Under the pieces are notes generated by a model. That model worked only from the letters and a program-made list of their open reading frames with translations. It had not been told where the DNA came from and searched no databases. A DNA stretch of 17,018 nucleotides, taken from IMG/VR virus record IMGVR_UViG_2606217117_000010; one strand, written 5' to 3'. The stretch is from a virus. Its lineage: Duplodnaviria; Heunggongvirae; Uroviricota; Caudoviricetes. Made by a program: the position numbers and the translations under genes. Shown here one piece after another: positions 1 to 15,214 of the stretch (the stretch's first letter is position 1; the number at the start of each line of letters is the position of its first letter).

Positions 1-257
1 CTGCGGCGCAGTTCACGATTTTCACGCTCCAGCTCTTTCAGACGCTGACGTTCAGCGGTGGTGAGCCCTCCATCACCGCCCCCGGTATCCCGCTCATGCT
101 GGCGAACCCAGACACGCAGAGTCTCCGGCGTACAGCCAATCTTTGGAGCAATGGAACAAATTGTCGCCCATTGTGAGTCATATTCGCCCTGACTTTCCAG
201 AACCATACGGACTGCCCGTTGACGGACTTCAGGGGAAAAACGAGTATTTTTAGTCAT
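1..257 (-). CDS. IS3-family transposase OrfA (IS629-like), 3'-partial in window
   Basis: Minus-strand ATG at 257-255. Translation [85 protein letters not shown] is an HTH plus leucine-zipper OrfA typical of IS3 family and matches my recollection of IS629 OrfA. The ORF runs off the window start. Confidence 0.85.
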
Positions 258-311
258 CCTGTTTACCTCTTTCTCAGGAAGTTTAGTCTCCAGGATTCCC
301 GGGGCGGTTCA
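1..311 (-). mobile_element. IS3-family insertion sequence (IS629/IS1203-like), partial: terminal inverted repeat plus 5' part of orfA; element continues past the window start
   Basis: Reverse complement of 281-311 reads TGAACCGCCCCGGGAATCCTGGAGACTAAAC, a TG-initiated IS3-family terminal inverted repeat, which I recall as the IS629 left end. It is followed by an orfA start with GAGG RBS. A near-identical terminus (TGAACCGCCCCGGGTTTCCTGGAGAG) occurs at 16150. Confidence 0.85.
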
Positions 312-474
312 CTTTGTGGTAATAGGCCAGTCAACCAGCAGGATGCGTGTAAGCGAATTTGCGGAGCTATTAGAGCTTATACAGGCATTCGGTACAGAGC
401 GTGGCGTTAAGTGGTCAGACGAAGCGCGACTGGCTCTCGAATGGAAAGCGCGATGGGGAGATCGGGCTGCATGA
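312..474 (+). pseudogene. ninB: ninB (NinB/Orf-family recombination protein) 3' fragment, 5' part removed by the IS insertion
   Basis: Frame starting at 313 reads [53 protein letters not shown] then stop at 472-474. This matches the C-terminus of lambda NinB as I recall it. The reading frame begins abruptly at the IS boundary (311/312) with no start codon. Confidence 0.75.
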
Positions 475-998
475 CTATCAAATCAAATACGCCAGCACAC
501 GACAAGGACTGCTGGCAAACGCCGCTTTGGCTTTTTGATGCACTGGATATTGAGTTTGGATTCTGGCTGGATTCGGCAGCGAGCGACAAAAATGCTCTGT
601 GCGCTCACTGGCTAACTGAGGACGACGACGCGCTCAATTCTGAGTGGGTAAGCCACGGTGCAATCTGGAATAACCCACCGTACAGCAATATCAGGCCGTG
701 GGTGGAAAAAGCCGCTGAGCAGTGTATACAACAGCGACAGACGGTAGTGATGCTTGTGCCAGAGGATATGTCTGTCGGATGGTTCAGCAAGGCTCTGGAG
801 AGTGTTGACGAAGTTCGTATTATCACTGATGGACGGATTAATTTTATCGAACCATCGACAGGGCTGGAGAAGAATGGAAACAGCAAAGGCTCCATGCTGC
901 TGATTTGGCGACCGTTCATCAGTCCTCGACGGATGTTTACTACCGTATCCAAAGCGGCATTGATGGCGATCGGGCAGGGCGTCAGGAGGGCTGCATGA
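471..998 (+). CDS. phage DNA N6-adenine methyltransferase (phage Dam family, PF05869-like)
   Basis: Translation [31 protein letters not shown]...WNNPPYSN... carries the N-terminal CWQTP motif and the NPPY catalytic motif IV of N6-adenine methyltransferases. ATG 471 overlaps the ninB stop (ATGA), and the stop overlaps the ninE ATG. In-frame alternative starts at 411 (GTG), 441 and 453 would overlap ninB and are less likely. Confidence 0.8.
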
Positions 999-1171
999 GA
1001 CGACAGCGACGAAGCATCACCGACATAATCTGCGAAAACTGCAAATACCTTCCAACGAAATGCTCCAGAAATAAACGCAAGCTAATCCCAAAAGAATCTG
1101 ACGTAAAAACCTTCAATTACACAGCCCACCTGTGGGATATCCGGTGGCTAAGATATCGTGCGAGGAAATGA
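995..1171 (+). CDS. ninE: NinE protein
   Basis: 58 aa [58 protein letters not shown] matches lambda/DLP12 NinE as I recall it. RBS AGGAGG at 984-989. The ORF-track start at 905 is an upstream extension overlapping the methyltransferase. Confidence 0.75.
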
Positions 1172-1173
1172 CA

Positions 1174-1515
1174 ATGGATTATTCACAGTTAAGTGATTTT
1201 GAAATTAACAGAATGGTAGGAGACATAATTTTTAAAGGCCTTTGGGCAAGTAAACCGGAAACATCAGGGAATAACACCAACAAATGGTATTACGGAAATG
1301 CTGATACAACTTTTGAGCCATTAAATCATTTGCCTGACTACTGCAATGATCCGAGCGCTTCATGGCCGATTATTGAGAAATACAGGATTTCTATCTTAGA
1401 CCAGTTAACTGAATGGTGTGTGGATGCAAAAGGCGTAAGCCCAATATTTGATACCAGACCTCTCCGCGCCGCCATGATTGTCTTTCTCCTGATGCAGGAG
1501 GCCAATAATGCTTAG
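1174..1515 (+). CDS. nin-region hypothetical protein (about 113 aa); possible NinX/DUF-type phage protein
   Basis: Uninterrupted ORF in the expected nin-region slot between ninE and the ninF-like ORF. GAGGA RBS at 1162-1166 and ATG at 1174, with an alternative ATG at 1168. The stop overlaps the next start. No motif recognised. Confidence 0.55.
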
Positions 1516-1702
1516 CCCATCTCAATCCCTTCAATACCTGAAAGAAAGCATAGAGCGGGCTTCAATGTGCACAGAGTGGATTCTATCTAGGTTTAGCGCA
1601 TACAGAAGATTGCCGGTAAAGGGCATGCCAAGCAAGTCGATGCTGCATATGCAAAAGAATGCGCGCTGGAAGGTATGGCGAGAACACAGGTTATGTGGCT
1701 AA
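1508..1702 (+). CDS. ninF: NinF-like small protein (N-terminus NinF-like, remainder divergent)
   Basis: The N-terminal [18 protein letters not shown] resembles lambda NinF ([18 protein letters not shown]...), but the remainder does not show the cysteine-rich NinF pattern I remember. Position immediately upstream of rusA. Confidence 0.4.
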
Positions 1703-1721
1703 AAGAGGGGGTTATTAAGGC

Positions 1722-2084
1722 GTGAATACCTACAGCATCACATTACCCTGGCCTCCGAGCAATAATCGCTATTACCGCCATAATCGCGGGCGCACGCACG
1801 TCAGCGCAGAGGGGCAGGCATACCGCGATAACGTCGCCCGAATCATTAAAAACGCAATGCTGGATATCGGCCTGGCTATGCCTGTGAAAATCCGCATTGA
1901 GTGCCACATGCCGGATCGCCGTCGCCGTGACCTGGATAATCTGCAAAAAGCCGCTTTTGACGCACTCACTAAAGCAGGTTTCTGGCTGGATGATGCTCAG
2001 GTCGTTGATTACCGCGTTGTGAAGATGCCTGTTACCAAAGGTGGGAGGCTGGAACTGACCATCACCGAAATGGGGAATGAATGA
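1722..2084 (+). CDS. rusA: crossover junction endodeoxyribonuclease RusA (Holliday junction resolvase)
   Basis: 120 aa [47 protein letters not shown]...[31 protein letters not shown] matches E. coli DLP12 RusA as I recall it. GTG start with upstream GAGGGGG RBS. Confidence 0.9.
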
Positions 2085-2221
2085 TGTTTGAGTTTAATAT
2101 GGCAGAACTTCTTCGCCACCGCTGGGGGCGTCTGCGCTTATATCGTTTCCCCGGTTCTGTTTTGACCGATTACCGAATACTGAAGAATTACGCCAAAACC
2201 CTGACAGGAACAGGAGTATGA
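2081..2221 (+). CDS. ylcG: YlcG-like small phage protein (46 aa)
   Basis: Below the ORF-track threshold. ATG at 2081 overlaps the rusA stop (ATGA). Translation [46 protein letters not shown] matches DLP12 YlcG as I recall it and occupies the same rusA-ylcG-Q position. Confidence 0.5.
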
Positions 2222-2306
2222 AGTCAGAGATAACAATCAACTAATACTGTTTTGTTGATTTTTGCTTGTAATTGGCGTTCTGGTCTGATTTTTGTGGAGT
2301 AAGTTG

Positions 2307-2690
2307 ATGCGTGATATTCAGATGGTTCTTGAGCGTTGGGGTGCGTGGGCGGCTAATAATCATGAAGATGTGACCTGGTCGTCCATTGCCGCCGGTTTTA
2401 AGGGATTAATTCCTTCAAAAGTAAAATCTCGCCCGCAATGTTGTGACGATGACGCGATGATCATTTGCGGGTGCATGGCCCGTCTGAAAAAGAACAACAG
2501 CGATTTACACGATTTATTAGTAGATTATTATGTATGTGGTATGACATTCATGTCACTGGCAAGTAAGCATTGCTGCTCGGATGGTTATATCGGGAAAAGG
2601 TTACAGAAGGCTGAGGGCATAATTGAAGGGATGTTAATGGCATTAGATATCCGGTTAGATATGGATATCGTTGCTAATAATTCTAATTGA
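2307..2690 (+). CDS. quuD: late-gene antiterminator Q (phage 82 / DLP12 QuuD type)
   Basis: 127 aa [62 protein letters not shown]... is cysteine-rich (putative Zn site) and matches 82-type Q/QuuD as I recall it. GGAG RBS at 2296-2299. The ORF-track TTG at 2292 is an upstream extension. Confidence 0.85.
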
Positions 2691-2827
2691 TATGCAATTG
2701 TTTACTAAAAGTTATTAAAAATGGGGCGTGGAAACGCCCCCAAAATAAAGGGTAATATATAACAGAAGGTTTATATAGTAAGAAGCAAGGTAGTGCTTCT
2801 AAAGGAAGTGGCTTGAGGGCTCCACTT
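2691..2827 (+). promoter_or_regulatory. possible Q-proximal late promoter / qut region (location uncertain; alternative site at 4160-4205)
   Basis: Inference from lambdoid architecture, where PR' and qut lie directly downstream of Q and upstream of a terminator. An intrinsic terminator lies at 2828-2868, but I could not identify a convincing -35/-10 pair here. Confidence 0.25.
2711..2740 (-). terminator. rho-independent terminator of the porin gene (minus strand)
   Basis: Hairpin GGGGCG-TGGAAA-CGCCCC at 2723-2740. On the minus strand it is followed by ATTTTTAATAAC (reverse complement of 2711-2722). Confidence 0.6.
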
Positions 2828-2878
2828 ATATGTTGCGGAGGCAAAGCCTCCCGCAACATATCTTTTTCGTAAGTCAGA
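2741..2878 (-). ncRNA. ipeX: porin 3'-UTR with strong internal hairpin; candidate IpeX-like regulatory RNA
   Basis: Untranslated stretch between the porin stop (2879) and its terminator, containing the 14-bp-stem hairpin at 2828-2861. An sRNA (IpeX) has been described in the equivalent nmpC 3' region of DLP12 and phage PA-2, as I recall. Sequence identity to IpeX was not verified. Confidence 0.3.
2828..2868 (+). terminator. rho-independent terminator on + strand downstream of Q (tR'-like, or terminator of early rightward transcription)
   Basis: Stem ATATGTTGCGGAGG (2828-2841), loop CAAAG, stem CCTCCCGCAACATAT (2847-2861) with a 1-nt bulge, followed by CTTTTTCG. Confidence 0.6.
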
Positions 2879-3961
2879 TTAGAACTGATAAACCAGACCT
2901 ACAGCGACGATGTCGTCGGTATCAATACCAGCTGTTTTGGTAAACTTACTATCGTCAATTAAGTTGATTTTGTAATCAACAAAAGTAGACATGTTTTTAT
3001 TAAAGTAGTAAGTAGCACCGACATCGACATACTTGACTAAGTCTCGGTCACCATGAACACCAAGGTCTTTACCTTTTGACTGAAGGTAAGCAACAGATGG
3101 GCGCAGACCGAAGTCAAACTGATATTGTGCTACTGCTTCAAAGTTTTGTGCTTTGTTTGCAATATGGTTATTACCAAAAACGGTCATATTCTGAGTTTCA
3201 GAATATGTGGTAGCCAGATAGATATTGTTCGCATCATATTTCAGGCCTGCAGCCCATACTTCCGCATTTTTGCCGGAGGCATTGAATTTGCTCTTACCAT
3301 AGGCGACCTGACCGTCAGTGCGATCTGATTTAGCATAGGTTGCACCCACGCCGAATCCTTCATACTCATAAGTAGTGGAGAAACCGAAACCATCACCATT
3401 GGCTTCAGTTACGTCAGTGCGGTCATTTTTACCCTGATACTGAGCAGCAAAGTTCAGGCCATCGACCAGACCAAAGAAGTCGTTGTTACGATAAGTTGCA
3501 ACACCAGTAGTGCGACCAGTCATGAACACATCTGTTTGGGTCCAGGTATCACCACCGAATTCTGGCAGAACGTCAGTCCACGCACCGATGTCGTATGCTA
3601 CACCGTAGTTACGGCCGTAATCGATGGAGCCGTAATCACCAAATTTCAGGCCTGCAAATGCAAGACGGGTTTTGTCTTTGGAAGAACCTTGAGATTCAGC
3701 ACGGTTGCCTTTGAATTCATATTCCCACTGACCGAAACCAGTCAGTTGATCGTTGATTTGGGTTTCACCTTTGAAGCCAAGACGGGCATAAGTAGTATCA
3801 CCATCATCTGCATCATTAGAGGAGAAGTAGTGCTTGGCATTAACTTTCCCGTATAGATCCAGCTTGTTACTGTCTTTATTATAAATTTCAGCTGCCTGAG
3901 CAGACATCGCCATCAGTACTGATGCAGCTACAGCAGAAATTGCCACTGTTAATTTTTTCAT
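2879..3961 (-). CDS. nmpC: outer membrane porin, OmpC/PhoE general bacterial porin family (prophage NmpC / Lc type)
   Basis: 360 aa from ATG at 3961-3959. Signal peptide [23 protein letters not shown] followed by [16 protein letters not shown], and C-terminal ...VAVGLVYQF ending in Phe: hallmark porin features. Located between Q and the holin as nmpC is in DLP12. The ORF-track start at 4021 is an upstream extension. Confidence 0.9.
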
Positions 3962-4159
3962 TGTACGCCCTTTTTTTGAACTATTATTAAAAAATGATGT
4001 CACTGCGCGATAAATATTCATCTAATCAATGTGATTATTTCAAGATGTAAGTTTTAGTTTCTCATTTAATTTGTGAAGTAGATCTCTATTTTTATCTGAA
4101 CCTTTTCTATCTAATCCTATTCATGGCTCTTGTCTGAACAAAAATAAATCTATTAGCTA

Positions 4160-4205
4160 ATTTATATTAATGGCACTTATTTATAAGTGCTCTATAATTC
4201 TTTAG
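4160..4205 (+). promoter_or_regulatory. candidate sigma70 promoter (possible late promoter PR' driving a short terminated leader RNA)
   Basis: -35-like ATGGCA (4170-4175), 17-bp spacer, perfect -10 TATAAT (4193-4198). It lies about 190 nt upstream of the intrinsic terminator at 4388-4420, analogous to lambda PR'-tR'. The region is AT-rich, so a chance match is possible. Confidence 0.3.
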
Positions 4206-4387
4206 CTTAATTTAAACAAACTAAAAATAACATCGGAAATTATTAACTGATTATTTGTTGAAGTTTTCTTATGTATTTGTGGTGGTGTTTTGAACACTCG
4301 GTGGCATTCTCACAAATATCATTTAGTAGTTTACGTACGTAAAAAATTGGTTATGCTGTTAAGAGTGGTTACTTCGTCACACAGCTT

Positions 4388-4420
4388 AAACCCGCCGTCG
4401 AGCGGGTTTTTCCATTTTTT
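4388..4420 (+). terminator. rho-independent terminator on + strand, 130 bp upstream of the holin gene (tR'-like candidate)
   Basis: Stem AAACCCGC (4388-4395), loop CGTCGA, stem GCGGGTTT (4402-4409), followed by TTCCATTTTTT. Confidence 0.55.
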
Positions 4421-4549
4421 GAGTCTCGATATTAGCTGATAACCCAATACCTGAGTTATTCACTGACTCCGAATCTGTTACGTTTCTGCCTTTATTGCGA
4501 TACGTAATATCCCCTTAATTTACACCCGCTTTGTCTGCGAGGTGGGGTT

Positions 4550-4765
4550 ATGAAATCCATGGATAAGTTAACAACGGGTGTCGCCTATGGCACCTCAGCA
4601 GGTAGTGCCGGTTACTGGTTTTTACCGCTGCTCGATAAAGTCACGCCCTCACAGTGGGCAGCAATAGGTGTGCTGGGTAGCCTGGTATTTGGCCTGCTGA
4701 CGTACCTGACAAACCTTTATTTCAAGATTAAAGAAGATAAGCGCAAGGCTGCGAGAGGTGAATAA
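4550..4765 (+). CDS. essD: class II holin / pinholin (phage 21 S21 type) with dual-start motif
   Basis: 71 aa [71 protein letters not shown] has two TMDs and a basic C-terminus. Met1-Lys-Ser-Met4 is the antiholin/holin dual start. Matches S21 as I recall it. Confidence 0.9.
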
Positions 4766-5262
4766 TGCCTCCATCATTACGAAAAGCCGTTGCTGCTGCT
4801 ATTGGTGGCGGAGCAATTGCTATAGCATCAGTGTTAATCACTGGCCCAAGTGGTAACGATGGTCTGGAAGGTGTCAGCTACATACCATACAAAGATATTG
4901 TTGGTGTATGGACTGTATGTCACGGGCATACAGGAAAAGACATCATGCTCGGTAAAACGTATACCAAAGCAGAATGCAAAGCCCTCCTGAATAAAGACCT
5001 TGCCACGGTCGCCAGACAAATTAACCCGTACATCAAAGTCGATATACCGGAAACAATGCGCGGCGCTCTTTACTCATTCGTTTACAACGTGGGTGCTGGC
5101 AATTTCAGAACATCGACGCTTCTTCGCAAAATAAACCAGGGCGATATCAAAGGCGCATGTGATCAGCTACGTCGCTGGACATATGCTGGCGGTAAGCAAT
5201 GGAAAGGTCTCATGACTCGTCGTGAGATTGAGCGTGAAATCTGTTTGTGGGGTCAGCAATGA
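4765..5262 (+). CDS. rrrD: SAR endolysin (T4-lysozyme-like, GH24; phage 21 R21 type)
   Basis: N-terminal signal-anchor-release domain [20 protein letters not shown], followed by a catalytic E...D...T triad region ([24 protein letters not shown]). GAGAGG RBS. Start overlaps the holin stop by 1 nt. Confidence 0.9.
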
Positions 5263-5723
5263 ACAGAGTAACCGCGATTATCTCCGCTCTGGTTATCTGC
5301 ATCATCGTCTGCCTGTCATGGGCTGTTAATCATTACCGTGATAACGCCATTACCTACAAAGCCCAGCGCGACAAAAATGCCAGAGAACTGAAGCTGGCGA
5401 ACGCGGCAATTACTGACATGCAGATGCGTCAGCGTGATGTTGCTGCGCTCGATGCAAAATACACGAAGGAGTTAGCTGATGCGAAAGCTGAAAATGATGC
5501 TCTGCGTGATGATGTTGCCGCTGGTCGTCGTCGGTTGCACATCAAAGCAGTCTGTCAGTCAGTGCGTGAAGCCACCACCGCCTCCGGCGTGGATAATGCA
5601 GCCTCCCCCCGACTGGCAGACACCGCTGAACGGGATTATTTCACCCTCCGGGAACGACTGGTAATGATGCAGGCCCAACTTGAAGGTGCTCAGCAATACA
5701 TAACCGAGCAGTGTTTAAAGTAA
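5259..5723 (+). CDS. rzpD: i-spanin Rz
   Basis: [61 protein letters not shown]... has an N-terminal TMD and coiled coil, and is near-identical to lambda Rz as I recall it. ATG 5259 overlaps the endolysin stop (ATGA). Confidence 0.85.
5479..5664 (+). CDS. rzoD: o-spanin Rz1 (outer-membrane lipoprotein), embedded in the +1 frame of Rz
   Basis: [24 protein letters not shown]... carries a lipobox (VVGC), followed by the proline-rich [15 protein letters not shown]. Entirely nested inside Rz. Confidence 0.85.
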
Positions 5724-5860
5724 AATCTTAACTACAATATGATTCATTTTGATGATTGTTTCATAAGGAACAGTGAAGTAAGATCTAAGAGGAGTTAAAT
5801 TTTATACAGTATAATCATAATATTGCAGCAAGGTGGTTATAATTGAAAGAATATTTAGAT

Positions 5861-7318
5861 ATGAATACATCTCATGTAAGAGTTGTTACTCATATGTGTG
5901 GGTTCCTGGTTTGGCTCTATAGTCTTTCAATGTTGCCACCAATGGTTGTAGCATTGTTTTATAAAGAAAAAAGCCTGTTCGTTTTCTTTATAACTTTCGT
6001 TATATTTTTTTGCATTGGTGGCGGAGCGTGGTATACAACTAAGAAATCTGGCATTCAATTACGTACCCGTGATGGGTTTATTATAATTGTAATGTTTTGG
6101 ATTTTGTTTTCTGTTATTAGTGCATTCCCTTTATGGATTGACTCAGAACTTAATTTAACGTTCATTGATGCTCTGTTTGAAGGGGTTTCTGGAATAACAA
6201 CAACAGGAGCAACTGTAATTGATGATGTTAGTTCATTACCTCGGGCATATTTGTACTATCGGTCACAGTTAAATTTTATAGGTGGTTTAGGAGTTATTGT
6301 TCTGGCGGTTGCTGTATTGCCATTATTGGGTATTGGTGGTGCAAAGCTTTATCAGTCAGAAATGCCGGGGCCATTTAAGGATGACAAACTCACTCCCCGC
6401 CTGGCCGATACGTCACGGACACTGTGGATAACTTATTCTTTATTAGGTATTGCTTGTATTGTCTGTTATAGACTTGCAGGAATGTCTTTGTTTGATGCTA
6501 TTTGTCACGGGATTTCCACAGTTTCGCTTGGTGGTTTCTCAACTCATAGCGAGAGTATCGGATATTTTAATAACTATTTGGTTGAGCTGGTGGCTGGTTC
6601 TTTTTCCCTGCTATCGGCTTTCAACTTCACTCTTTGGTATATTGTTATTAGCAGAAAAACGATAAAACCTTTAATCAGAGATATTGAACTTCGTTTCTTT
6701 CTGTTAATAGCCTTAGGGATGATCATTGTTACCTCTTTCCAGGTCTGGCATATAGGTATGTATGACTTGCATGGAAGTTTTATTCATTCGTTTTTTCTTG
6801 CCAGCTCCATGCTCACTGATAATGGTTTAGCTACGCAGGATTATGCAAACTGGCCCACGCACACGATAGTGTTTTTGCTGTTGTCAAGTTTCTTTGGGGG
6901 ATGTATCGGTTCAACCTGTGGTGGAATTAAGTCACTTCGATTTCTTATACTTTTCAAACAAAGCAAACACGAGATAAATCAACTTTCTCATCCCAGAGCG
7001 TTGTTAAGTGTAAATGTAGGAGGGAAGATAGTTACAGATCGTGTAATGAGGTCTGTATGGAGTTTCTTTTTTCTTTATACTCTCTTCACGGTGTTTTTTA
7101 TACTGGTGTTAAATGGTATGGGATATGATTTTCTTACATCATTTGCAACAGTGGCTGCATGTATTAATAATATGGGATTAGGTTTTGGGGCTACTGCATC
7201 GTCATTCGGAGTGCTTAATGACATTGCAAAATATTTAATGTGCATAGCTATGATTCTTGGTCGCCTTGAAATTTATCCTGTTATTATATTGTTTTCAGGT
7301 TTTTTTTGGCGCTCCTAA
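5861..7318 (+). CDS. trkG: Trk-system potassium uptake protein TrkG (TrkH/KtrB superfamily)
   Basis: 485 aa polytopic membrane protein with repeated selectivity-filter-like glycine motifs (GITTTGATV, GIGGAK, SLGGFS, GSTCGGIK). Matches the Rac-prophage TrkG of E. coli as I recall it. AT-rich gene downstream of Rz/Rz1, as in Rac. The ORF-track TTG at 5843 is an upstream extension. Confidence 0.9.
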   Translation: MNTSHVRVVTHMCGFLVWLYSLSMLPPMVVALFYKEKSLFVFFITFVIFFCIGGGAWYTTKKSGIQLRTRDGFIIIVMFWILFSVISAFPLWIDSELNLTFIDALFEGVSGITTTGATVIDDVSSLPRAYLYYRSQLNFIGGLGVIVLAVAVLPLLGIGGAKLYQSEMPGPFKDDKLTPRLADTSRTLWITYSLLGIACIVCYRLAGMSLFDAICHGISTVSLGGFSTHSESIGYFNNYLVELVAGSFSLLSAFNFTLWYIVISRKTIKPLIRDIELRFFLLIALGMIIVTSFQVWHIGMYDLHGSFIHSFFLASSMLTDNGLATQDYANWPTHTIVFLLLSSFFGGCIGSTCGGIKSLRFLILFKQSKHEINQLSHPRALLSVNVGGKIVTDRVMRSVWSFFFLYTLFTVFFILVLNGMGYDFLTSFATVAACINNMGLGFGATASSFGVLNDIAKYLMCIAMILGRLEIYPVIILFSGFFWRS

Positions 7319-7404
7319 TATATGGCTGATTTATAATTGTGAGTTTAATATTATGTTGACTCACTCATTGATCCAATACCTAACTTTACCAGCAACACCT
7401 CCGC

Positions 7405-7439
7405 CCCCAGTAGCACTGGCTGCTGGGGTGCGTTTTATT
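7405..7439 (+). terminator. rho-independent terminator downstream of trkG
   Basis: Stem CCCCAGTAGC (7405-7414), loop ACTG, stem GCTGCTGGGG (7419-7428, one G-U pair), followed by TGCGTTTTATT. Confidence 0.55.
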
Positions 7440-7455
7440 CATAAAGCAAGGCTGT

Positions 7456-8250
7456 ATGAGCGAGAAATTAAAGATAGTCTATCGCCCATTACAAGAATTG
7501 TCACCGTATGCGCACAATGCCAGGACGCACAGTACTGAGCAGGTGGCACAACTGGTAGAAAGTATTAAGCAATTCGGCTGGACTAATCCGGTGCTGATTG
7601 ACGAAAAGGGCAAAATTATTGCGGGTCACGGTCGTGTTATGGCGGCTGAAATGCTCAAAATGGATTCTGTTCCGGTCATTGTTCTGTCTGGCCTGACGGA
7701 TGAGCAGAAAAAGGCGTACCGCCTGGCAGATAATCGCCTGCCGATGAATGCTGGCTGGGATGAAGATCTGTTGCGGATGGAGCTGTCGGACCTAATCAAT
7801 GCTGATTTTGATGTCTCCCTGACAGGCTTCATCCCGACAGAAATTGATGAACTGTTGACGGATGTTTTGCCCGGTACAGGAAATGAGGAGGAGCCGTATA
7901 CGACGAAAATTGATACGCCTGTTTATGAGCCGTCGGGCGGTAAACCGGATATCAGTGAACTGTACGACGATACGAAAACTCAGGAGCTGATCAGCCGGAT
8001 ACGTTCGGCGTCCCTTGATCCTGATATTGAGAAATTCCTCCTGTGTGCGGCAGAACGTCACACAGTGTTTAATTTCAGCAGAATTGCGGACTATTACGCT
8101 CATGCCCCCGCTGAAATTCAGTGCCTTTTCGAGGAGTCGGCGCTGGTGATCATTGATTATCAGCAGGCTATTGAAAATGGATTTGTCCGAATGACGCAGC
8201 GCATGGTGGAGATCATGCATGGCGGGGAGGAGGAGGAGGAATATGCGTGA
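7456..8250 (+). CDS. ParB/sulfiredoxin-like nuclease-domain protein (ParB N-terminal domain plus uncharacterised C-terminal domain with poly-Glu tail)
   Basis: N-terminal IVYRPLQELSPYAHNARTH...NPVLIDEKGKIIAGHGRVMAAEM resembles the ParB/Srx fold, with a G-x-G-R box in place of the ParB GERRxRA patch. The C-terminus GGEEEEEYA is encoded by GGAGGAGGAGGAGGAA, which doubles as the RBS of the next gene. A Rac-prophage ynaK-like position is possible but unverified. Confidence 0.75.
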   Translation: MSEKLKIVYRPLQELSPYAHNARTHSTEQVAQLVESIKQFGWTNPVLIDEKGKIIAGHGRVMAAEMLKMDSVPVIVLSGLTDEQKKAYRLADNRLPMNAGWDEDLLRMELSDLINADFDVSLTGFIPTEIDELLTDVLPGTGNEEEPYTTKIDTPVYEPSGGKPDISELYDDTKTQELISRIRSASLDPDIEKFLLCAAERHTVFNFSRIADYYAHAPAEIQCLFEESALVIIDYQQAIENGFVRMTQRMVEIMHGGEEEEEYA

Positions 8251-9175
8251 TGATTTTTGCGCCTTTATTCTGACTCACGGGCGACCGGACAAAGTTCTGA
8301 CTTACCGGACGTTGCGTCGTGCTGGCTATACCGGGAAAATTTTTATCGTTGTTGATGATGAAGATAAGACACGGCATCAGTACATGGCTGAATTTGGTGA
8401 ACAGGTGCTGGTATTTTCCAAAGCCGATATTGCCAGTCGTTTTGACGAAGCCGATAATTTTGGTGATCGCCGCTCAATTTTTTACGCCCGTAATGCCTGT
8501 TTCGACCTGGCAAAACTGGTCGGGTGTAAATACTTCATTCAGCTCGATGATGATTATCACGAGTTCCAGTTTCGGGTGGATCGCAACTATGACCAGGCCT
8601 ATTTCCCGATAAGGAAACTGGATGCGATCCTTTCTGAAATGCTGGCGTATTACGAATCAATACCCGCGCTTTCCATCGCTATGTCGCAGGGCGGGGATTT
8701 TCTTGGTGACAATGGCGGCCATGCTTCGTGGGTGAAACGCAAGGCAATGAACAGCTTTATCTGTTCGGTTGATCGACCGTTCTCATTCATGGGGCGCATT
8801 AACGAGGATGTGAATACGTACACGAATCTCGGTCGCTGTGGTGAATTGTTTATGACGATCGGTGCTGTCCAGTTAGGGCAGAAACAGACTCAGAAAAACA
8901 GCGGCGGAATGACCGAGCTGTATCTGGATTCCGGAACCTACGTTAAAAGTTTTTACTCCGTCATGTATTCGCCGTCGTGCGTAAAAATCTCACTGATGGG
9001 TGCCAGCCATAAACGCATTCACCATCAGGTCACCTGGAACAACGCTGCAGTAAAAATCCTTCACGAAAAATACAGGAAGAAGACACCCTGCATATCAATG
9101 GGGGTGACAAATGATTCCGTATTCGAAAGTCGAGTCTCTGGCAGCGTGCCGGATGACTGCACAACAAATCGCTGA
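8243..9175 (+). CDS. uncharacterised protein with N-terminal GT-A (family-2-like) glycosyltransferase fold signature
   Basis: The coding region is well supported: long ORF, strong AGGAGG RBS, 8-nt overlap with the upstream stop. Alternative ATG at 8219 gives MAGRRRRN-. The function is a motif-level guess: AFILTHGRPD...IFIVVDDEDK...ARNACFDLAKLVGCKYFIQLDDDYHEF resembles the GT2 pattern (beta-strand with DD, then ARN...G.Y...LDxDD/DxD). Confidence 0.6.
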   Translation: MRDDFCAFILTHGRPDKVLTYRTLRRAGYTGKIFIVVDDEDKTRHQYMAEFGEQVLVFSKADIASRFDEADNFGDRRSIFYARNACFDLAKLVGCKYFIQLDDDYHEFQFRVDRNYDQAYFPIRKLDAILSEMLAYYESIPALSIAMSQGGDFLGDNGGHASWVKRKAMNSFICSVDRPFSFMGRINEDVNTYTNLGRCGELFMTIGAVQLGQKQTQKNSGGMTELYLDSGTYVKSFYSVMYSPSCVKISLMGASHKRIHHQVTWNNAAVKILHEKYRKKTPCISMGVTNDSVFESRVSGSVPDDCTTNR

Positions 9176-9362
9176 CGTTCTGGATGTTGATCTGAACCGA
9201 CTGAAAGAAAATCGGGAAGCAATGACAGATTTTTATGCGGCCATCCGTAAGGGCAGAGCGAAAGGTGAAGCCGAGTTACGAGCGGCATTGTTTAAGCTTG
9301 CCAGAAAAGGGGATGCCTTTGCTCTGCGCGAACTACTCAGGGTGGATAAAAATCAGGACTAA
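9111..9362 (+). CDS. small hypothetical protein, possibly DNA-binding (packaging-associated?)
   Basis: 83 aa ORF with GGGGTG RBS, ending 3 nt before the terminase small subunit start. Contains the HTH-like segment MTAQQIADVLDVDLNRL. It overlaps the 3' end of the upstream gene by 65 nt, and the alternative start at 9153 still overlaps by 23 nt. Confidence 0.45.
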   Translation: MIPYSKVESLAACRMTAQQIADVLDVDLNRLKENREAMTDFYAAIRKGRAKGEAELRAALFKLARKGDAFALRELLRVDKNQD

Positions 9363-9365
9363 CTG

Positions 9366-10460
9366 ATGAGCAGACCGGACTGGGGGGCGTTGCAGCAGGA
9401 GTATATTGCTGAATACACCCGCTCCGGTATATCTCCGGTGGCATGGTGTGAAGCAAGGGGACTGAACTACGCAACAGCCCGTCGTTACATCAAAAAAACT
9501 CCGAAAAATGCGCAGAAAGAAATGCGCAAAACTGCGCAAAAAAGTGCGCGAAAAAAAACTGCGCAGACTGCGCAAAGGCAGAACGGAAAATCTCAGAAAA
9601 AAAAGGCTGTATCCGATGCACTCCTGATTGAGGGGGACACGGAAGAAATTTCGTTCTGCCCCGATGAATTCGGTATTTCTGACCAGCAGGCAAAATTCGC
9701 CATGTTGGTTGCTCAGGGGAAAAAGCCGACAGAGGCATACCGACTGGCTGGTTATGAGGGGCAAGGTGCGACAGCTAACAGCAACGCCAGCCGTATGCTT
9801 AGAAATGCCAGGGTTTATCGTGCTATCAGCTACTTCCGCAATCAGTACCAGAAACGCTATACCGCAGACCTGGATTTACTGGTGAGCCAGTTGATGGCCA
9901 TTGTCCAGGCCGACCCCAATCAGTTGGCACAATTTCGCCGTGTTAACTGCCGTTATTGCTGGGGCGAGAATCATCTCTACCAGTGGCGTGATATTGCAGA
10001 ATTCGATAAGGCTGCGGCACAGGCCTCCAGAGATGGTAAACCCGAGCCGGAATATGGAGGCCTCGGCTTTGTTGATAACGCCATACCCAATCCTGATTGC
10101 CCGAAGTGCTGCGGTGAGGGAACAGGACAGCTTTATATGGCTGATACCACACTGCTTGATGGGGATGCGCGGCAATTATATGCAGGGTCAAAGCTCGGAA
10201 AATACGGTGTTGAGATCCTGCTGGAGGATAAGGCTGCCGCCCGGCGTGAATTGTTGCGTTTGCTTTCTGCTGGCGGGGCATTATGTGCAGATAAGCGGCT
10301 ACAGGAACTGGAAATTGAACGGCGCAGAATAGAGAACCAGAAGCTGCGCAAAGAGATCGAAACGGTGGAGGATAATGAACATCCCCAGCCTGTGGCGATC
10401 AATATTAATGTGGTTGATGCCAGATTAAGGAGTGATGAAGATGATCTCTCCGACGCTTAA
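9366..10460 (+). CDS. terminase small subunit (Terminase_2-like) with N-terminal HTH, lysine-rich linker and a CxxC...CxxC zinc-ribbon insertion
   Basis: Segment FGISDQQAKFAMLVAQGKKPTEAYRLAGYEGQGATANSNASRMLRNARV matches the terminase small-subunit pattern (LT.KQ..F...Y...NAT.A...AGYS...A...ASRLL.N). Lies immediately upstream of the large subunit. Cysteine pairs NCRYCWGE and DCPKCCGE. Confidence 0.7.
   Translation: MSRPDWGALQQEYIAEYTRSGISPVAWCEARGLNYATARRYIKKTPKNAQKEMRKTAQKSARKKTAQTAQRQNGKSQKKKAVSDALLIEGDTEEISFCPDEFGISDQQAKFAMLVAQGKKPTEAYRLAGYEGQGATANSNASRMLRNARVYRAISYFRNQYQKRYTADLDLLVSQLMAIVQADPNQLAQFRRVNCRYCWGENHLYQWRDIAEFDKAAAQASRDGKPEPEYGGLGFVDNAIPNPDCPKCCGEGTGQLYMADTTLLDGDARQLYAGSKLGKYGVEILLEDKAAARRELLRLLSAGGALCADKRLQELEIERRRIENQKLRKEIETVEDNEHPQPVAININVVDARLRSDEDDLSDA
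9490..9620 (+). repeat. degenerate tandem repeats (about 12 nt, TGCGCA-A-rich) with A7-A8 homopolymer runs, inside the terminase small subunit gene
   Basis: AATGCGCAGAAAG / AAATGCGCAAAA / CTGCGCAAAAAA / GTGCGCGAAAAAAAA / CTGCGCAGACTGCGCAAAGG, encoding KNAQKEMRKTAQKSARKKTAQTAQRQ. Confidence 0.5.
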
Positions 10461-11742
10461 TGTGCCTCAGGCGCGATTTCTTTCAATGCCCCATAAATTT
10501 AAAGCCTATATTGCTGGTTTTGGCTCGGGCAAAACATGGGTTGGGTGTGGCGGCATATGCAAGGGGATTTGGGAGCATCCAGGTATAAATCAGGGATATT
10601 TTGCGCCAACGTATCCCCAAATTCGCGATATTTTTTACCCTACAGTGGAAGAAGTTGCTGCTGACTGGGGATTGAACGTAAAAATTAATGAGGGAAATAA
10701 AGAGGTTCACTTTTATTACGGACGCCAGTATCGGGGAACCACTATCTGCAGATCGATGGAGAAGCCACAAACGATCGTCGGTTTCAAAATTGGTAATGCG
10801 CTGGTGGATGAACTGGACATTTTGCCGAAGGAAAAAGCCAGAACGGCGTGGCGCAAGATAATTGCGCGTATGCGTTATAAGATTGATGGACTTCGCAACG
10901 GTATTGACGTTACAACCACGCCGGAAGGATTCAAATTTGTCTACGAGCAGTTTGTTAAAGCCGTGCGTGAAAAAACAGAGCTGGCCTCACTGTATGGTCT
11001 GGTGCAGGCATCTACTTTCGATAATGAAAAGAACCTGCCAGCAGATTACATTCCTTCACTTCTTGAATCATACCCTCCAGAGCTGATTAAAGCCTATCTT
11101 CTAGGACGGTTTACTAACCTGACAAGTGGTACTGTTTACCATCAGTTTGACCGGAAACTGAATAATTGCGAAGAAGTGGAGCAGCCAGGGGAGCCGATTT
11201 ATATTGGGATGGATTTTAACGTTGGAAAGATGGCGGGAATCGTCCATGTGCTGCGTTTGGGGCTTCCATGTGCGGTAACTGAAATCATCAATGCCTACGA
11301 TACGCCGGATATGATCCGCCTCATTAAAGAACGCTTCTGGCTGTATGACGGGCATGATTACCGGAAAGTGAGGGAGATTTATATTTATCCAGATGCTTCC
11401 GGAGATTCCAGAAAATCAAGTAACGCAAGTACGACGGATATAGCCCAGCTTAAGCAGGCAGGTTTTAACGTTGTGGTGAACAGCTCGACCCCGCCAGTAA
11501 AAGATCGCGTTAACTCAATGAATGCAATGTTCTGCAATGCCAATGGTGAGCGTCGCTATAAAGTTAATGTGAAGCGTTGTCCGGTATATGCCGAATCTCT
11601 GGAGCAACAGGTCTGGGATGATAAGGGGGAGCCTGATAAAAAATCTGGCAATGATCACCCGAATGATGCCGGAGGTTATTTCATCGTTAAGCAATTCCCT
11701 ATTGTCAAACCGACCGGAAGAGTCACATCACTTCGGATTTAA
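10441..11742 (+). CDS. terminase large subunit (ATPase plus nuclease)
   Basis: Walker A AGFGSGKT near the N-terminus, and C-terminal nuclease acidic motifs (YPDASGDS, GNDHPNDAGG). AAGGAG RBS at 10426-10431 favours ATG 10441; the ORF-track start at 10432 (GTG) is also possible. Overlaps the end of the small-subunit gene. Confidence 0.9.
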   Translation: MISPTLNVPQARFLSMPHKFKAYIAGFGSGKTWVGCGGICKGIWEHPGINQGYFAPTYPQIRDIFYPTVEEVAADWGLNVKINEGNKEVHFYYGRQYRGTTICRSMEKPQTIVGFKIGNALVDELDILPKEKARTAWRKIIARMRYKIDGLRNGIDVTTTPEGFKFVYEQFVKAVREKTELASLYGLVQASTFDNEKNLPADYIPSLLESYPPELIKAYLLGRFTNLTSGTVYHQFDRKLNNCEEVEQPGEPIYIGMDFNVGKMAGIVHVLRLGLPCAVTEIINAYDTPDMIRLIKERFWLYDGHDYRKVREIYIYPDASGDSRKSSNASTTDIAQLKQAGFNVVVNSSTPPVKDRVNSMNAMFCNANGERRYKVNVKRCPVYAESLEQQVWDDKGEPDKKSGNDHPNDAGGYFIVKQFPIVKPTGRVTSLRI

Positions 11743-11744
11743 TT

Positions 11745-13151
11745 ATGGCTGATATATCAACACCCAACCTCGACTATAACGATATGCTGGAGGCGTGGGA
11801 TATTAACGACGCATTGATGGGCGGTACGCTTGAAATGCGCAGGCAGGGGGAAAATTATCTCCCCAAATGGCCTAATGAAGATGAAGACGCTTATAAAAAA
11901 CGCCTGTCTGTGGCTACGTTACTTCCTGTGTATGAAGAAAGCATCAAACAAAATATTGGGCGCATATTTGCAGAGCCGACAGTATTGAGTGAGGAAACGC
12001 CGGAAAAAATCAGGGAATATGCAGAAAATATCGACATGGAGGGGAGCCGACTGGATGTGTGGGCGCAGCAATTTTTCAGTCTCGCATTTCAGTATGGTGT
12101 GGCACATGCGCTGGTGGACTATCCACGAACGGATATGAACGAGATTCGGACAAAAGCCGATGAAAACGCGGCCGGTGGTCGCCCGTACGTTACGATGCTG
12201 AATCCACGCCAGGTTATTGGATGGAAATCGAAAGTTGAAAAAGGGAAAGTTGTTCTCACTGATTTGCGTATAAAAGAGGTCATCATTATTGATGGTGATG
12301 ATTTCGGGCAGAAGAAGGTGGAGCAGATCCGCCATATTATGCCCCGTCGAGTTGAAATTTATCGACGTAGCGAAGGCACTAATGGCGAATCTGTCTGGAC
12401 GCTTCATGAGTCATGGAATACCAGCCGTGATGATATTCCTCTGGTAACACTGTACACGAAGAAAACAGGATTTATGCGTGGTACACCGCCATTGCTTAAT
12501 CTTGGCTTGCTGAATATCAAGCACTGGCAAAGCCAGAGCGAGCAGGACAATATTCTTCATGTTGCCCGCGTTCCATTGCTGGTGGCCTACGGGCTGGACA
12601 GGAATGAAGAACTGACGGTTGGTGCATCCACCGCTACGATTTTTGAGGACAGAACAAAAAATGGCCTCGAATATGTTGAACATAGTGGCGCAGCGATAGA
12701 ATCTGGCGAAACATCACTTGAGAAGCTGGAAAATCAGATGCGTCATGCCGGCGCTAAACTTCTGCGTGCTGAAAATACATCCACCAAATCTGTTGATCAG
12801 ACTAATGAAGAGCGAATGCAGGAAAACTCGCCGCTTTATACAATGGCGAACTCCCTCGAAGATGCCCTCGATAATATTCTCCAGATAATGGCGGAATGGA
12901 TCGGAGAGAGTTGCGGTGGCAATGTGGATGTGCGCACTGAACTGGATGTATCTGCCCAGGTGTTTGACTCATCCTCCGCGCTGGCTGTTCAGTCATTGCG
13001 TCAGGGCGGTGATATACGTCAGATTGATGCGGTTCGGGTGTTGCAGGCGTTGAAATTTATCGATCAGGATTCCCGTCCAGAGGAAGTGATCGATGAATTA
13101 AAAAATCAGAGTGTAATGCTGATGGAAATCAATGATGCAAACCGTGAATGA
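11745..13151 (+). CDS. portal protein (putative)
   Basis: 468 aa ORF starting 3 nt after the large-terminase stop and followed by a Mu-F-like head morphogenesis gene: the canonical portal position and size. No motif confirmation. Confidence 0.7.
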   Translation: MADISTPNLDYNDMLEAWDINDALMGGTLEMRRQGENYLPKWPNEDEDAYKKRLSVATLLPVYEESIKQNIGRIFAEPTVLSEETPEKIREYAENIDMEGSRLDVWAQQFFSLAFQYGVAHALVDYPRTDMNEIRTKADENAAGGRPYVTMLNPRQVIGWKSKVEKGKVVLTDLRIKEVIIIDGDDFGQKKVEQIRHIMPRRVEIYRRSEGTNGESVWTLHESWNTSRDDIPLVTLYTKKTGFMRGTPPLLNLGLLNIKHWQSQSEQDNILHVARVPLLVAYGLDRNEELTVGASTATIFEDRTKNGLEYVEHSGAAIESGETSLEKLENQMRHAGAKLLRAENTSTKSVDQTNEERMQENSPLYTMANSLEDALDNILQIMAEWIGESCGGNVDVRTELDVSAQVFDSSSALAVQSLRQGGDIRQIDAVRVLQALKFIDQDSRPEEVIDELKNQSVMLMEINDANRE

Positions 13152-14247
13152 ACGGCTGCGTGATGAATCAATTGCTCATGCAGTCTGGATATCCCGCTAT
13201 AGCACTGGCGTGGCTGCCAGAATGGTGAAAATACTGAATGACAGCGATGCGGAACTTACTGCTCGCCTGCTGATAGCACTGGACAGCCTCGATCCAGGTA
13301 GTTTTACCGTTAAGCGCCTGGAGTCACTTCTGGCGAGCGTCAGAGAGGTTAACCGCACTGCTATTAACAGCATGTTTACCAGTCTCTCCGGAGAGCTGAA
13401 CGAGCTGGCAATTTATGAGGCTGGTTATCAGTTAAGTCTGTTTGATTCTATGCTACCTGATTTTGTTGCTGATGTTCACCCTCTGGTTGGTATCTCTCCT
13501 GATGCACTTTATGCCGCTGCAATGGCGCGACCATTCCAGGGACGACTGCTCAGTGAGTGGGCCTCAGATCTTGAGGCGGATCGGCTCAGACGCATAACAA
13601 ATACAGTGCGTCAGGGTTTTTTGCTGGGGGATACCAATGAGCAGATCGCAAGAAAAATTCGGGGACATGTCAGTAAGGGATTTCAGGATGGTGCATTGCA
13701 GATGAGCCGGGCTAATGCGGCCAGCATTGCAAAAACAGCGGTTGGACATCTTGCTGCTACTGCCCGTGAGAGTTTTGCCAGCGCGAATAATGATTTGATT
13801 AAGGGTAAGCAATGGTTATCAACGCTTGATAATCGTACTACGCCACAATGTCGAATCAGGGATCGCCTCAAATATACGCTGAATAATAAACCTGTAGGTC
13901 ACAGCGTGCCTTATTTGCAGGGGCCGGGAAAAATTCATTTCTGCTGCCGCTCAACGGAAACGTTCATTCTGAAATCAGCGAAGGAACTGGGTATTGATGT
14001 TCGCGATATTTCCCCGGCTGAGCGGGCCAGCATGGATGGCGTGATGGCCGGAGATACAACCTACAGGGAATGGTTTTTGCGTCAGCCTTACACCAGACAA
14101 AAACAGATTGTGGGGGAAAGCCGAGCAAAGCTGATTCGGGATGGTGGTATGTCGCCAGATGAATTTTACACCGATAAAGGCGAATGGCTGACGCTGAAGC
14201 AGCTCCGTGAGCGTGATGCACAGGTATTCAGAAAAGCAGGGATTTAA
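13132..14247 (+). CDS. phage head morphogenesis protein, SPP1 gp7 / Mu F family (minor head protein)
   Basis: Contains the family-typical segment GKQWLSTLDNRTTPQCRIRDRLKY (D-x-R-T-x-x-C). Overlaps the portal gene end by 20 nt. Confidence 0.8.
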   Translation: MMQTVNERLRDESIAHAVWISRYSTGVAARMVKILNDSDAELTARLLIALDSLDPGSFTVKRLESLLASVREVNRTAINSMFTSLSGELNELAIYEAGYQLSLFDSMLPDFVADVHPLVGISPDALYAAAMARPFQGRLLSEWASDLEADRLRRITNTVRQGFLLGDTNEQIARKIRGHVSKGFQDGALQMSRANAASIAKTAVGHLAATARESFASANNDLIKGKQWLSTLDNRTTPQCRIRDRLKYTLNNKPVGHSVPYLQGPGKIHFCCRSTETFILKSAKELGIDVRDISPAERASMDGVMAGDTTYREWFLRQPYTRQKQIVGESRAKLIRDGGMSPDEFYTDKGEWLTLKQLRERDAQVFRKAGI

Positions 14248-14266
14248 ATAAATCATTTATTACAAC

Positions 14267-14294
14267 AGGCTACCTTCGGGTGGCCTTTTTTATT
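14267..14294 (+). terminator. rho-independent terminator with UUCG tetraloop between the head morphogenesis and scaffold genes
   Basis: AGGCTACC-TTCG-GGTGGCCT (8-bp stem including one G-U pair) followed by TTTTTATT, beginning 20 nt after the stop at 14247. Confidence 0.6.
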
Positions 14295-14351
14295 GCTGCG
14301 ATCCGGATGGTGAGCAGCGTAACTGTCGGAAGACTTAAACCAGGTACTAAT

Positions 14352-15116: not shown

Positions 15117-15214
15117 CACATTTGTCAGCTTCCGGATGGGAGCTGGTGTCAGGGCTGGATAGCTCATTACTCCATCTATTCACAATTACGCAAATTTTTA
15201 AGGAATATTTAATT

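Follow-up and report, generated by a model that had tools for sequence, protein, structure and literature searches.

The trkG region of a Rac-type lambdoid late module, a probable cargo cassette

The stretch of viral DNA analysed here, hereafter called the window (17,018 nucleotides), carries at positions 5724-7439 what is very probably the trkG cassette in a lambdoid late module of the Rac type, that is, an intact, foreign and AT-rich gene of the TrkH family lodged in a variable cargo slot. This slot would extend between the lysis cassette, composed of holin, lysozyme and Rz/Rz1, and the packaging genes, which comprise the ParB-like gene, the TAGT-family gene, terS and terL. In the lysogen, trkG would be transcribed from its own sigma70 promoter within the 137-bp upstream spacer, as the literature shows for the identical K-12 sequence, with H-NS, again according to published work, expected to damp transcription without silencing it. 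The hairpin with its U-tract (7402-7439) is predicted to terminate the lysogen transcript, which would leave the packaging genes off. Together with host TrkA, TrkG would then perform Na+-dependent K+ uptake that backs up TrkH, a role taken from the literature on a protein differing at four of the 485 residues. During lytic growth, Q-antiterminated late transcription would also read through trkG, because the gene is co-oriented with the late operon.

The gene is real and intact, but it is an ordinary and already described cargo gene, as its low GC content, its location in Rac, its independent promoter and its partial silencing by H-NS have been published. The region nevertheless provides a clean textbook case of a prophage cargo gene adopted by the host, and its exact joints document K-12 Rac as the deletion remnant of a late module that is still common in E. 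coli. Modest additions to the published picture are a terminator that belongs to the backbone edge of the slot while the promoter spacer travels with trkG, a set of chromosomal homologues and a probable shift of the start codon.

The transporter gene and its late module

The + strand of the window represents a late region of lambdoid type. A gene for a Q-type antiterminator can be placed at the equivalent of about 2307-2690 on the basis of quuD annotated in the collinear prophage of ETEC H10407, and a porin gene occupies 2879-4021 on the strand opposite to the late genes. The + strand genes for the holin (4550-4765), the lysozyme (4765-5262) and the i-spanin Rz (5247-5723; Pfam Phage_lysis, 3.7e-53) constitute the lysis cassette, in which Rz comes last and borders the cargo slot on the left; the o-spanin lipoprotein gene Rz1 (5479-5664, + strand), with a lipobox and a proline-rich tail, is contained within Rz in another reading frame. 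The slot itself holds, on the + strand, the AT-rich spacer of 137 bp with the trkG promoter region (5724-5860), the trkG coding sequence as annotated (5861-7318), for a TrkH-family K+ transporter subunit, and, marking its right edge, an intrinsic-terminator-like hairpin with U-tract (7402-7439), which ends 17 nt 5' of the start codon of the ParB-like gene. The latter, a full-length ParB_N-like gene for 264 amino acids (7456-8250, + strand; Pfam ParB_N; PHROG 620 at 4.8e-90), forms the right border of the slot. Directly downstream follows a TAGT-family glycosyltransferase-like gene (8219-9175, + strand), and 3' of it terS, terL and the genes for portal, MuF-like head protein, scaffold and major capsid succeed one another in this order. 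The location of trkG between Rz/Rz1 and the packaging genes, as proposed in the initial annotation, is therefore borne out by the positions of the Rz and the ParB-like gene. Neither an Rfam scan nor a tRNA scan of the window produced a match, and a literature search for TAGT and ParB together in phages found nothing.

On the + strand, the open reading frame of trkG starts with ATG 5861, stops at 7318 and codes for 485 amino acids. Residues 40-483 match the Pfam TrkH family (PF02386) with an E value of 1.5e-143 and 479 bits against a cut-off of 27, and the TrkH-family subfamily model TIGR00933 is passed with 413.6 bits against a cut-off of 331.15. The NCBIfam TrkH equivalog model NF008020, on the other hand, is matched with 452 bits, which is under its cut-off of 866 and characterizes TrkG as a paralogue of TrkH. 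An end-to-end alignment with the Vibrio parahaemolyticus TrkH structures 4j9u and 3pjz (residues 7-485, E 8e-122) shows that the pore-loop stretches TTTGATVI, LGIGG, GGFSTH, GST.GG.K and NN.G.G.G are kept, with four pore-loop repeats and their conserved glycine motifs matching the solved TrkH structure; the fold family is common to TrkG and to the TrkH proteins encoded on the chromosomes of E. coli and V. parahaemolyticus. The early description of a Trk-family K+ transporter gene of 485 amino acids consequently holds with respect to open reading frame, family models and structure alignment. With K-12 TrkG 481 of the 485 residues are shared, the changes being P209S, V287M, S330N and C458Y, and judged by its sequence the window gene is the orthologue of TrkG of K-12 Rac, as opposed to TrkH. 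The assignment of the glycines that form the selectivity filter follows the work on K-12 Rac trkG, which demonstrated TrkA-dependent K+ uptake by K-12 TrkG and showed this uptake to be Na+-dependent, with Na+ also taken up, unlike in TrkH (Tanudjaja et al., 2022; PMC9898762). Function and regulation of the window allele would be those extrapolated from these K-12 experiments.

Base for base, the 1716-bp interval (5724-7439) is 99.2% identical to K-12 Rac DNA, and it recurs with 100% identity in one E. coli clinical isolate. The trkG of K-12 Rac, reportedly described by Schlosser and colleagues in 1991, is the same gene; the spacer 5' of it is identical to that of the window, and Rz and ynaK adjoin it in the same way. 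This Rz-trkG-ynaK adjacency corresponds to window 5279-7709 at 99.1% identity (22 nucleotide differences), so that both the Rz-trkG adjacency claimed for Rac and the comparison with Rac that had been suggested as a check come out as anticipated. The K-12 gene ynaK is the truncated 5' end of the ParB-like gene, and homology to K-12 ends at window 7709. How the truncation came about can be read from the collinear prophage of ETEC H10407. Positions 11556-13986 of the K-12 locus (L002) correspond to 20968-23398 of the ETEC locus (L162) at 99.7% identity, while the adjoining K-12 positions 13985-15744 correspond to ETEC positions 34958-36717 at 99.9%; from these joints it follows that K-12 has lost 11.6 kb, starting within the ParB-like gene at the equivalent of window 7709 and reaching as far as ydaY, a gene located between the tail tube and the tape-measure genes in the full module. 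By a second K-12 deletion most of the tape-measure-to-lom region is gone. In the window the full-length ParB-like, TAGT, terS, terL, portal and head genes are present, whereas K-12 Rac lost these by deletions; upstream, the window likewise contains the complete Q-porin-holin-lysozyme-Rz region, lost by deletion in K-12 Rac.

These joints directly establish K-12 Rac as a deletion derivative of the late module represented by the window, which makes the fuller form the ancestral arrangement. The suggestion in the initial annotation that trkG is here embedded in a more complete and possibly ancestral morphogenesis context is supported by the K-12 deletion joints relative to ETEC H10407. The ETEC H10407 prophage is collinear with window 312-16149 at 97.1% identity and runs on through the tail genes to stf, whereas IS3-family elements delimit the copy in the window. 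Parts of two such elements, directly oriented, occupy window 1-311 and 16150-17018, and the major capsid gene is interrupted by the right-hand element at 16149, about 200 nt short of its end; the late-module copy of the window is damaged by IS insertions.

Of 5426 complete E. coli genomes, 1551 carry the trkG interval; so do 10 phage-database records, among which those named 'Escherichia phage vB_EcoS-...' originate from prophages in clinical-isolate genomes (bioRxiv 10.1101/2022.06.29.498070) and were not counted toward inducibility. The segment composed of the ParB C-terminus, TAGT and terS is kept in at least 841 genomes, and 80% or more of the whole window is covered by 30 genomes; among sequenced genomes the fuller form is common and no rare relic. 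The module is found at ttcA in K-12, beside ybhC at the lambda site in ETEC H10407 and at the DLP12 site beside emrE and ybcK in 118C_1_fosA3, and it sits behind different early regions, with a lambda-like one in ETEC H10407.

Such a distribution raises the possibility that TrkG, besides helping the lysogen, also serves the phage, for example by countering K+ loss and so maintaining K+, by maintaining or altering membrane potential late in infection, or by excluding other phages, and that it has been kept in the module for this reason, with delivery by its own promoter plus Q-antiterminated read-through. The linkage of trkG to the 3' end of Rz and to ParB in about 29% of the E. coli genomes is consistent with this idea, as are the presence of trkG in all 10 of the 10 phage-database records with a high-identity ParB-TAGT segment, its co-orientation with the late operon and the occurrence of the same module at three different attachment sites. 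However, trkG is also kept in decayed prophages incapable of lytic growth, such as K-12 Rac, and in E. albertii it resides in a non-phage context, observations which both point to a benefit for the host, and relatives of the packaging module do without it. A role for the phage in addition is consequently unlikely, and the reading as a cargo gene that serves the lysogen is preferred.

Transcription, translation start and termination

The spacer between Rz and trkG (5724-5860) shows 0 differences from K-12 and is 98.5-100% identical across 152 viral-contig loci. With respect to a promoter, the initial annotation had pointed to the AT-rich upstream region with the hexamer TATAAT at 5810-5815. The hexamer is present, as is a second TATAAT at 5838-5843 which overlaps the likely start codon, but its value as evidence for a promoter did not stand, as shuffled spacers contain at least one TATAAT with a probability of 0.29 and a promoter scan identified no good -35 partner for the hexamer at 5810 and no excess of promoter-like sites in the spacer. 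As it is likely to occur by chance and is unaccompanied by a -35 element, the hexamer alone is no evidence for a promoter, and with scan and shuffle test unsupportive the claim of a promoter rests on the literature and not on the sequence. The hexamer at 5810 is located within a 19-nt block, ATTTATACAGTATAATCAT, which is invariant between E. coli and E. albertii.

The literature in question is on K-12, where an upstream trkG fragment drives luciferase expression (PMC9898762). The primers of this reporter, given in the supplement of the same work, map the fragment to approximately window 5350-5860, and in this reporter-equivalent stretch the window has five differences from K-12, all of them inside Rz. 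By genomic SELEX, a constitutive trkG promoter bound by the RNA polymerase-sigma70 (RpoD) holoenzyme has been recovered, one of few such promoters inside prophages (PMC5811629). Transcription of trkG is up in hns and hns stpA mutants, in line with a partial repression by H-NS that does not amount to silencing, and by qRT-PCR the expression level of K-12 trkG is about that of trkH (PMC9898762). The K-12 literature in combination with the identical spacer thus supports the conclusion that trkG would have its own promoter, active in the prophage, with the hexamer at 5810-5815 on the + strand as the candidate -10 element and a predicted transcription start near 5822.

It could be argued that trkG is a mere passenger of the late operon, transcribed from the Q-dependent late promoter only, silent in the lysogen and flanked by AT-rich DNA of no regulatory function; the gene is co-oriented with the late genes and located directly 3' of Rz, and scanning did not find a sigma70 promoter of canonical form. 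Yet K-12 Rac, which possesses neither a Q gene nor a late promoter upstream of trkG, expresses the gene at about the level of trkH, the upstream fragment is active in the reporter (PMC9898762), the holoenzyme binds in vitro (PMC5811629) and the spacer is identical to that of K-12, which makes the passenger scenario very improbable. Transcription exclusively from the late promoter, which the initial annotation had named as the outcome that would speak against it, is excluded for the identical regulatory sequence. An own promoter active in the lysogen remains the preferred reading.

The translation start may have to be revised. An in-frame TTG at 5843-5845 is located 18 nt 5' of the annotated ATG 5861 and is preceded by the Shine-Dalgarno-like sequence AAGGTGG (5830-5836, + strand). 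A TTG at -18 with a Shine-Dalgarno sequence before it is kept in four homologous loci (the window, E. fergusonii, Citrobacter and a Pectobacterium-like genome), and in two of these loci CTG or ATT stands where the annotated ATG would align. Among the matches listed, most of the homologues at 69-75% identity are 491 amino acids long, and 491 positions is also the length of the PHROG profile. The true start of TrkG is probably TTG 5843, which would result in a protein of 491 amino acids and place the annotated start 18 nt too far downstream. With translation starting at 5843, the TATAAT at 5838 would be irrelevant as a promoter, and the resulting layout, with a -10 element at 5810, a transcription start near 5822, the Shine-Dalgarno sequence at 5830 and the start codon at 5843, would be a sensible one.

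At the other end of the gene, a terminator scan identified a stem at 7405-7428 with 10 pairs, 7 of them G-C, followed by TGCGTTTTAT. Folding of the hairpin at 7402-7432 gives a dG of -25.2 kcal/mol (z = -3.97), and 0 of 200 shuffled sequences fold as well. Homology to the relatives that do not possess trkG, the viral contigs L075 and L082, starts at 7386-7402 and includes the terminator, with L075 and L082 displaying a different hairpin and a U6 tract at the terminator position, and 3' of the E. albertii trkG the terminator is absent. As the homology to the trkG-less relatives covers it, the terminator belongs to the backbone edge of the slot and was not brought by trkG. The structure of the terminator that the initial annotation had assigned to trkG at 7405-7439 is thereby confirmed, while its designation as the gene's own does not hold by descent.

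The cargo slot and its boundaries

A moron is an extra transcription unit in the genome of a lambdoid phage, in the sense of Hendrix and colleagues. The description of trkG as a self-contained AT-rich moron applies with respect to its distinct composition and the terminator structure but not with respect to full self-containment by descent, the terminator being part of the backbone. As regards another feature of a moron, the location between genes that are adjacent in relatives, no Rz-ParB joint was detected in 5426 genomes, although different cargo occupies the slot in phage 2G7b and in L075 and L082, which share one flank or the other.

Phage 2G7b is identical to window 312-5648 at 100%, and the identity ends 75 bp before the Rz stop codon. 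3' of Rz, a Bor-like gene and a YlcI/YnfO gene are located in 2G7b where the window has trkG. The viral contigs L075 and L082, on the right side of the slot, contain the ParB-TAGT-terS module at 95-96% identity without trkG, preceded by a different lysis cassette with two holin families and an M15 endolysin, and the cargo of their slot consists of small unrelated open reading frames including a KTSC-domain gene. The gene bor of lambda and of phage 2G7b, the latter with the same Rz allele as the window, occupies the same post-Rz slot as trkG, and both bor and trkG are AT-rich cargo genes useful to the lysogen. They differ in orientation and product: bor, on the opposite strand, specifies a small lipoprotein, whereas trkG points in the direction of the late operon and specifies a transporter of 485 or 491 amino acids.

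Among 155 viral-contig loci the stretch from about 5450 to 8150 represents a single conserved haplotype with a divergence of roughly 2% or less. The divergence profile of these loci is under about 1% from 5450 on, with the 3' part of Rz linked to trkG, while mosaicism is seen in the holin gene and the 5' part of Rz. In the complete genomes, trkG (1551 genomes) and the 5' end of ynaK (1557 genomes) are tightly linked. An empty site was searched for with a synthetic joint of the Rz end and the ParB start as the query, at a required coverage of 80% or more, and a direct Rz-ParB joint was recovered from 0 of the 5426 genomes, which implies that the insertion event itself is not recoverable from them. 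In this lineage of the module, trkG is a fixed component.

The E. albertii reference genome carries a trkG with 84.5% nucleotide identity and a GC content of 38%, located beside genes for CopD, an NleF-like protein and a metallophosphatase; neither Rz nor ParB can be recognised there. A weak resemblance to the last approximately 30 nt of Rz persists upstream of this trkG. The upstream spacer is 85% conserved, and the similarity fades about 45 nt beyond the trkG stop codon. As the spacer is kept with the E. albertii trkG and the terminator is absent, the spacer, unlike the terminator, moves together with the gene. There are hints in the sequence that the E. albertii copy might also descend from an Rz-trkG joint.

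A foreign gene with sharp composition boundaries, in a window that contains IS3-family copies at 1-311 and 16150-17018, might have been brought in by an autonomous mobile element (a transposon or an IS-bounded unit, for instance) that inserted 3' of Rz. However, a repeat search around 5724-7400 found no bracketing direct or inverted repeats, only short AT-rich chance matches, genes for a transposase or an integrase are absent from the cassette, what the IS copies flank is the entire 15.8-kb segment and not trkG, and exchange has apparently taken place by recombination inside Rz and near the ParB start, which leaves the mobile element with scarcely any probability. A cargo gene in a slot of the late module is the preferred interpretation of the region.

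Base composition and origin of trkG

The GC content of trkG is 37.8%, with 42% at the first, 40% at the second and 32.3% at the third codon position (GC3), while GC3 of all other genes of the window is in the range of 38-59% (Rz 52%, ParB-like gene 54%, holin 51%). The flanking Rz and ParB-like genes have an overall GC content of 49-52%, and that of the spacer between Rz and trkG is as low as 25.5%. The 1716-bp interval as a whole, with a GC content of 37.1%, ranks within the bottom 84 when 15303 sliding windows of equal size are compared, and as all of these 84 overlap one dip, which is located at trkG, it represents the most GC-poor stretch of this length; non-overlapping windows of 1716 bp elsewhere have 41.8-50.3% GC. 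The initial annotation was therefore right to call trkG markedly more AT-rich than its neighbours (GC3 of 32% versus 52-54% in the flanking genes), and the uniform base composition it had named as the opposite outcome is not what the profile shows. In K-12, a GC content of 38% for trkG versus 53% for trkH has been reported and horizontal acquisition assumed (PMC9898762).

The dip is most pronounced in non-coding DNA and at synonymous sites, and for this reason cannot be a side effect of the residues of a membrane protein. That the low GC content should be a by-product of the amino acids of a polytopic membrane protein and no sign of foreign origin, as low GC1 and GC2 values fitting a protein rich in Phe, Ile and Leu would permit, is hardly credible, given that GC3, which is independent of amino-acid composition, is only 32% in trkG but 51% in the holin, likewise a membrane protein, and 38-59% in the other genes, that the non-coding spacer is AT-rich as well and that host trkH has 53% GC (PMC9898762).

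A foreign gene remains the preferred reading, and the homologues indicate where it may have come from. The Escherichia trkG lineage comprises E. coli, E. ruysiae and E. albertii. Among the homologues looked up, the nearest ones outside this lineage share 75-79% amino-acid and about 70% nucleotide identity and are chromosomal, namely in E. fergusonii (beside porin genes), in Citrobacter and in a Pectobacterium-like genome (3' of pth-ychF), with GC contents of 42-46%. These relationships place trkG in a second clade of Trk paralogues of the Enterobacterales, and a phage would have captured it from a donor of lower GC content. More distant members are found in Buttiauxella, Serratia, Morganella and Xenorhabdus.

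Translation start and further locations of trkG

Upstream of the annotated trkG start an in-frame TTG codon is located at position 5843 of the window together with the SD sequence AAGGTGG (window 5830-5845). The TTG is kept in the homologues from E. fergusonii, Citrobacter and a Pectobacterium-like source, two of which have CTG or ATT at the position of the annotated ATG. As it is conserved, in-frame and equipped with an SD sequence, this codon suggests, from sequence comparison, a TrkG protein of 491 aa with the N-terminus MKEYLDMNTSH versus the 485 aa annotated.

A diverged trkG cassette consisting of spacer and gene (approximately 85% identity, GC 38%) is found in E. albertii NBRC 107761 (locus L167, 2877-4458). 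It is flanked by a CopD-family gene on one side and by NleF-like and metallophosphatase genes on the other. The 3 kb to either side contain no recognisable genes for lysis or packaging; the locus is probably a decayed prophage remnant. Within E. coli, the trkG interval has 1558 matches, 15 of which reside on plasmid records instead of chromosomes and may represent phage-plasmids or assembly artefacts.

AT-rich genes upstream of the lysis genes

A second AT-rich cargo gene, located downstream of the Q antiterminator gene and ahead of the holin gene, encodes a general porin of 380 aa (window 2879-4021, minus strand; Pfam Porin_1, 2e-151). The porin gene, oriented opposite to the late operon, has a GC3 of 38% and is neighboured by an AT-rich spacer (window 4022-4549; 33% GC). 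An identical gene is carried by phage 2G7b, where it is annotated as OmpC/OmpD/NmpC-like.

In L075, a viral contig related in its packaging module but lacking trkG, an AT-rich gene upstream of the lysis cassette (3614-4096, plus strand) shows a weak, below cut-off match to Pertussis_S2S3 (E 0.002). This gene may correspond to the pertussis-toxin-like genes of full-size Rac-like prophages reported by Jobling (as cited in PMC5917428).

The ParB-like/TAGT gene pair and terS

Downstream of trkG, window 7456-9175 (plus strand) holds two genes, the first of which is ParB_N-like (264 aa). The second matches PHROG 842 ('beta-glucosyl-HMC-alpha-glucosyltransferase', 1.5e-103) as well as Pfam TAGT ('TET-associated glycosyltransferase', 6e-35). 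Both are located shortly before terS, and the window contains no TET/JBP gene. The two genes may constitute a DNA-modification or packaging-associated pair; a literature search for TAGT together with ParB in phages gave no match. The K-12 Rac gene ynaK is a truncated remnant of the ParB-like gene. The trkG-bearing viral contigs L109, L113 and L115 lack the entire pair (relative to window 7466-9230): position 7465 is immediately followed by 9231, with an 'AGA' microhomology at the joint. The two genes are therefore dispensable or a separate indel.

Directly 5' of terS (window 9366-10460), an 83-aa ORF (window 9111-9362, plus strand) matches the middle positions 145-218 of 319 of the small-terminase family phrog_309 (8e-23). 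This ORF may be a piece of terS left by a split or a duplication, or else encode a DNA-binding subunit in its own right.

IS elements at the window ends

The 15.8-kb phage segment is bracketed by partial IS3-family elements in direct orientation (window 1-311 and 16150-17018), which possess terminal TGAACCGCCCCGG repeats and match an IS of 1310 bp in strain LC-1302-2020 with 100% identity. Because the major capsid gene is cut short at 16149 by the right-hand element, this prophage copy is defective.
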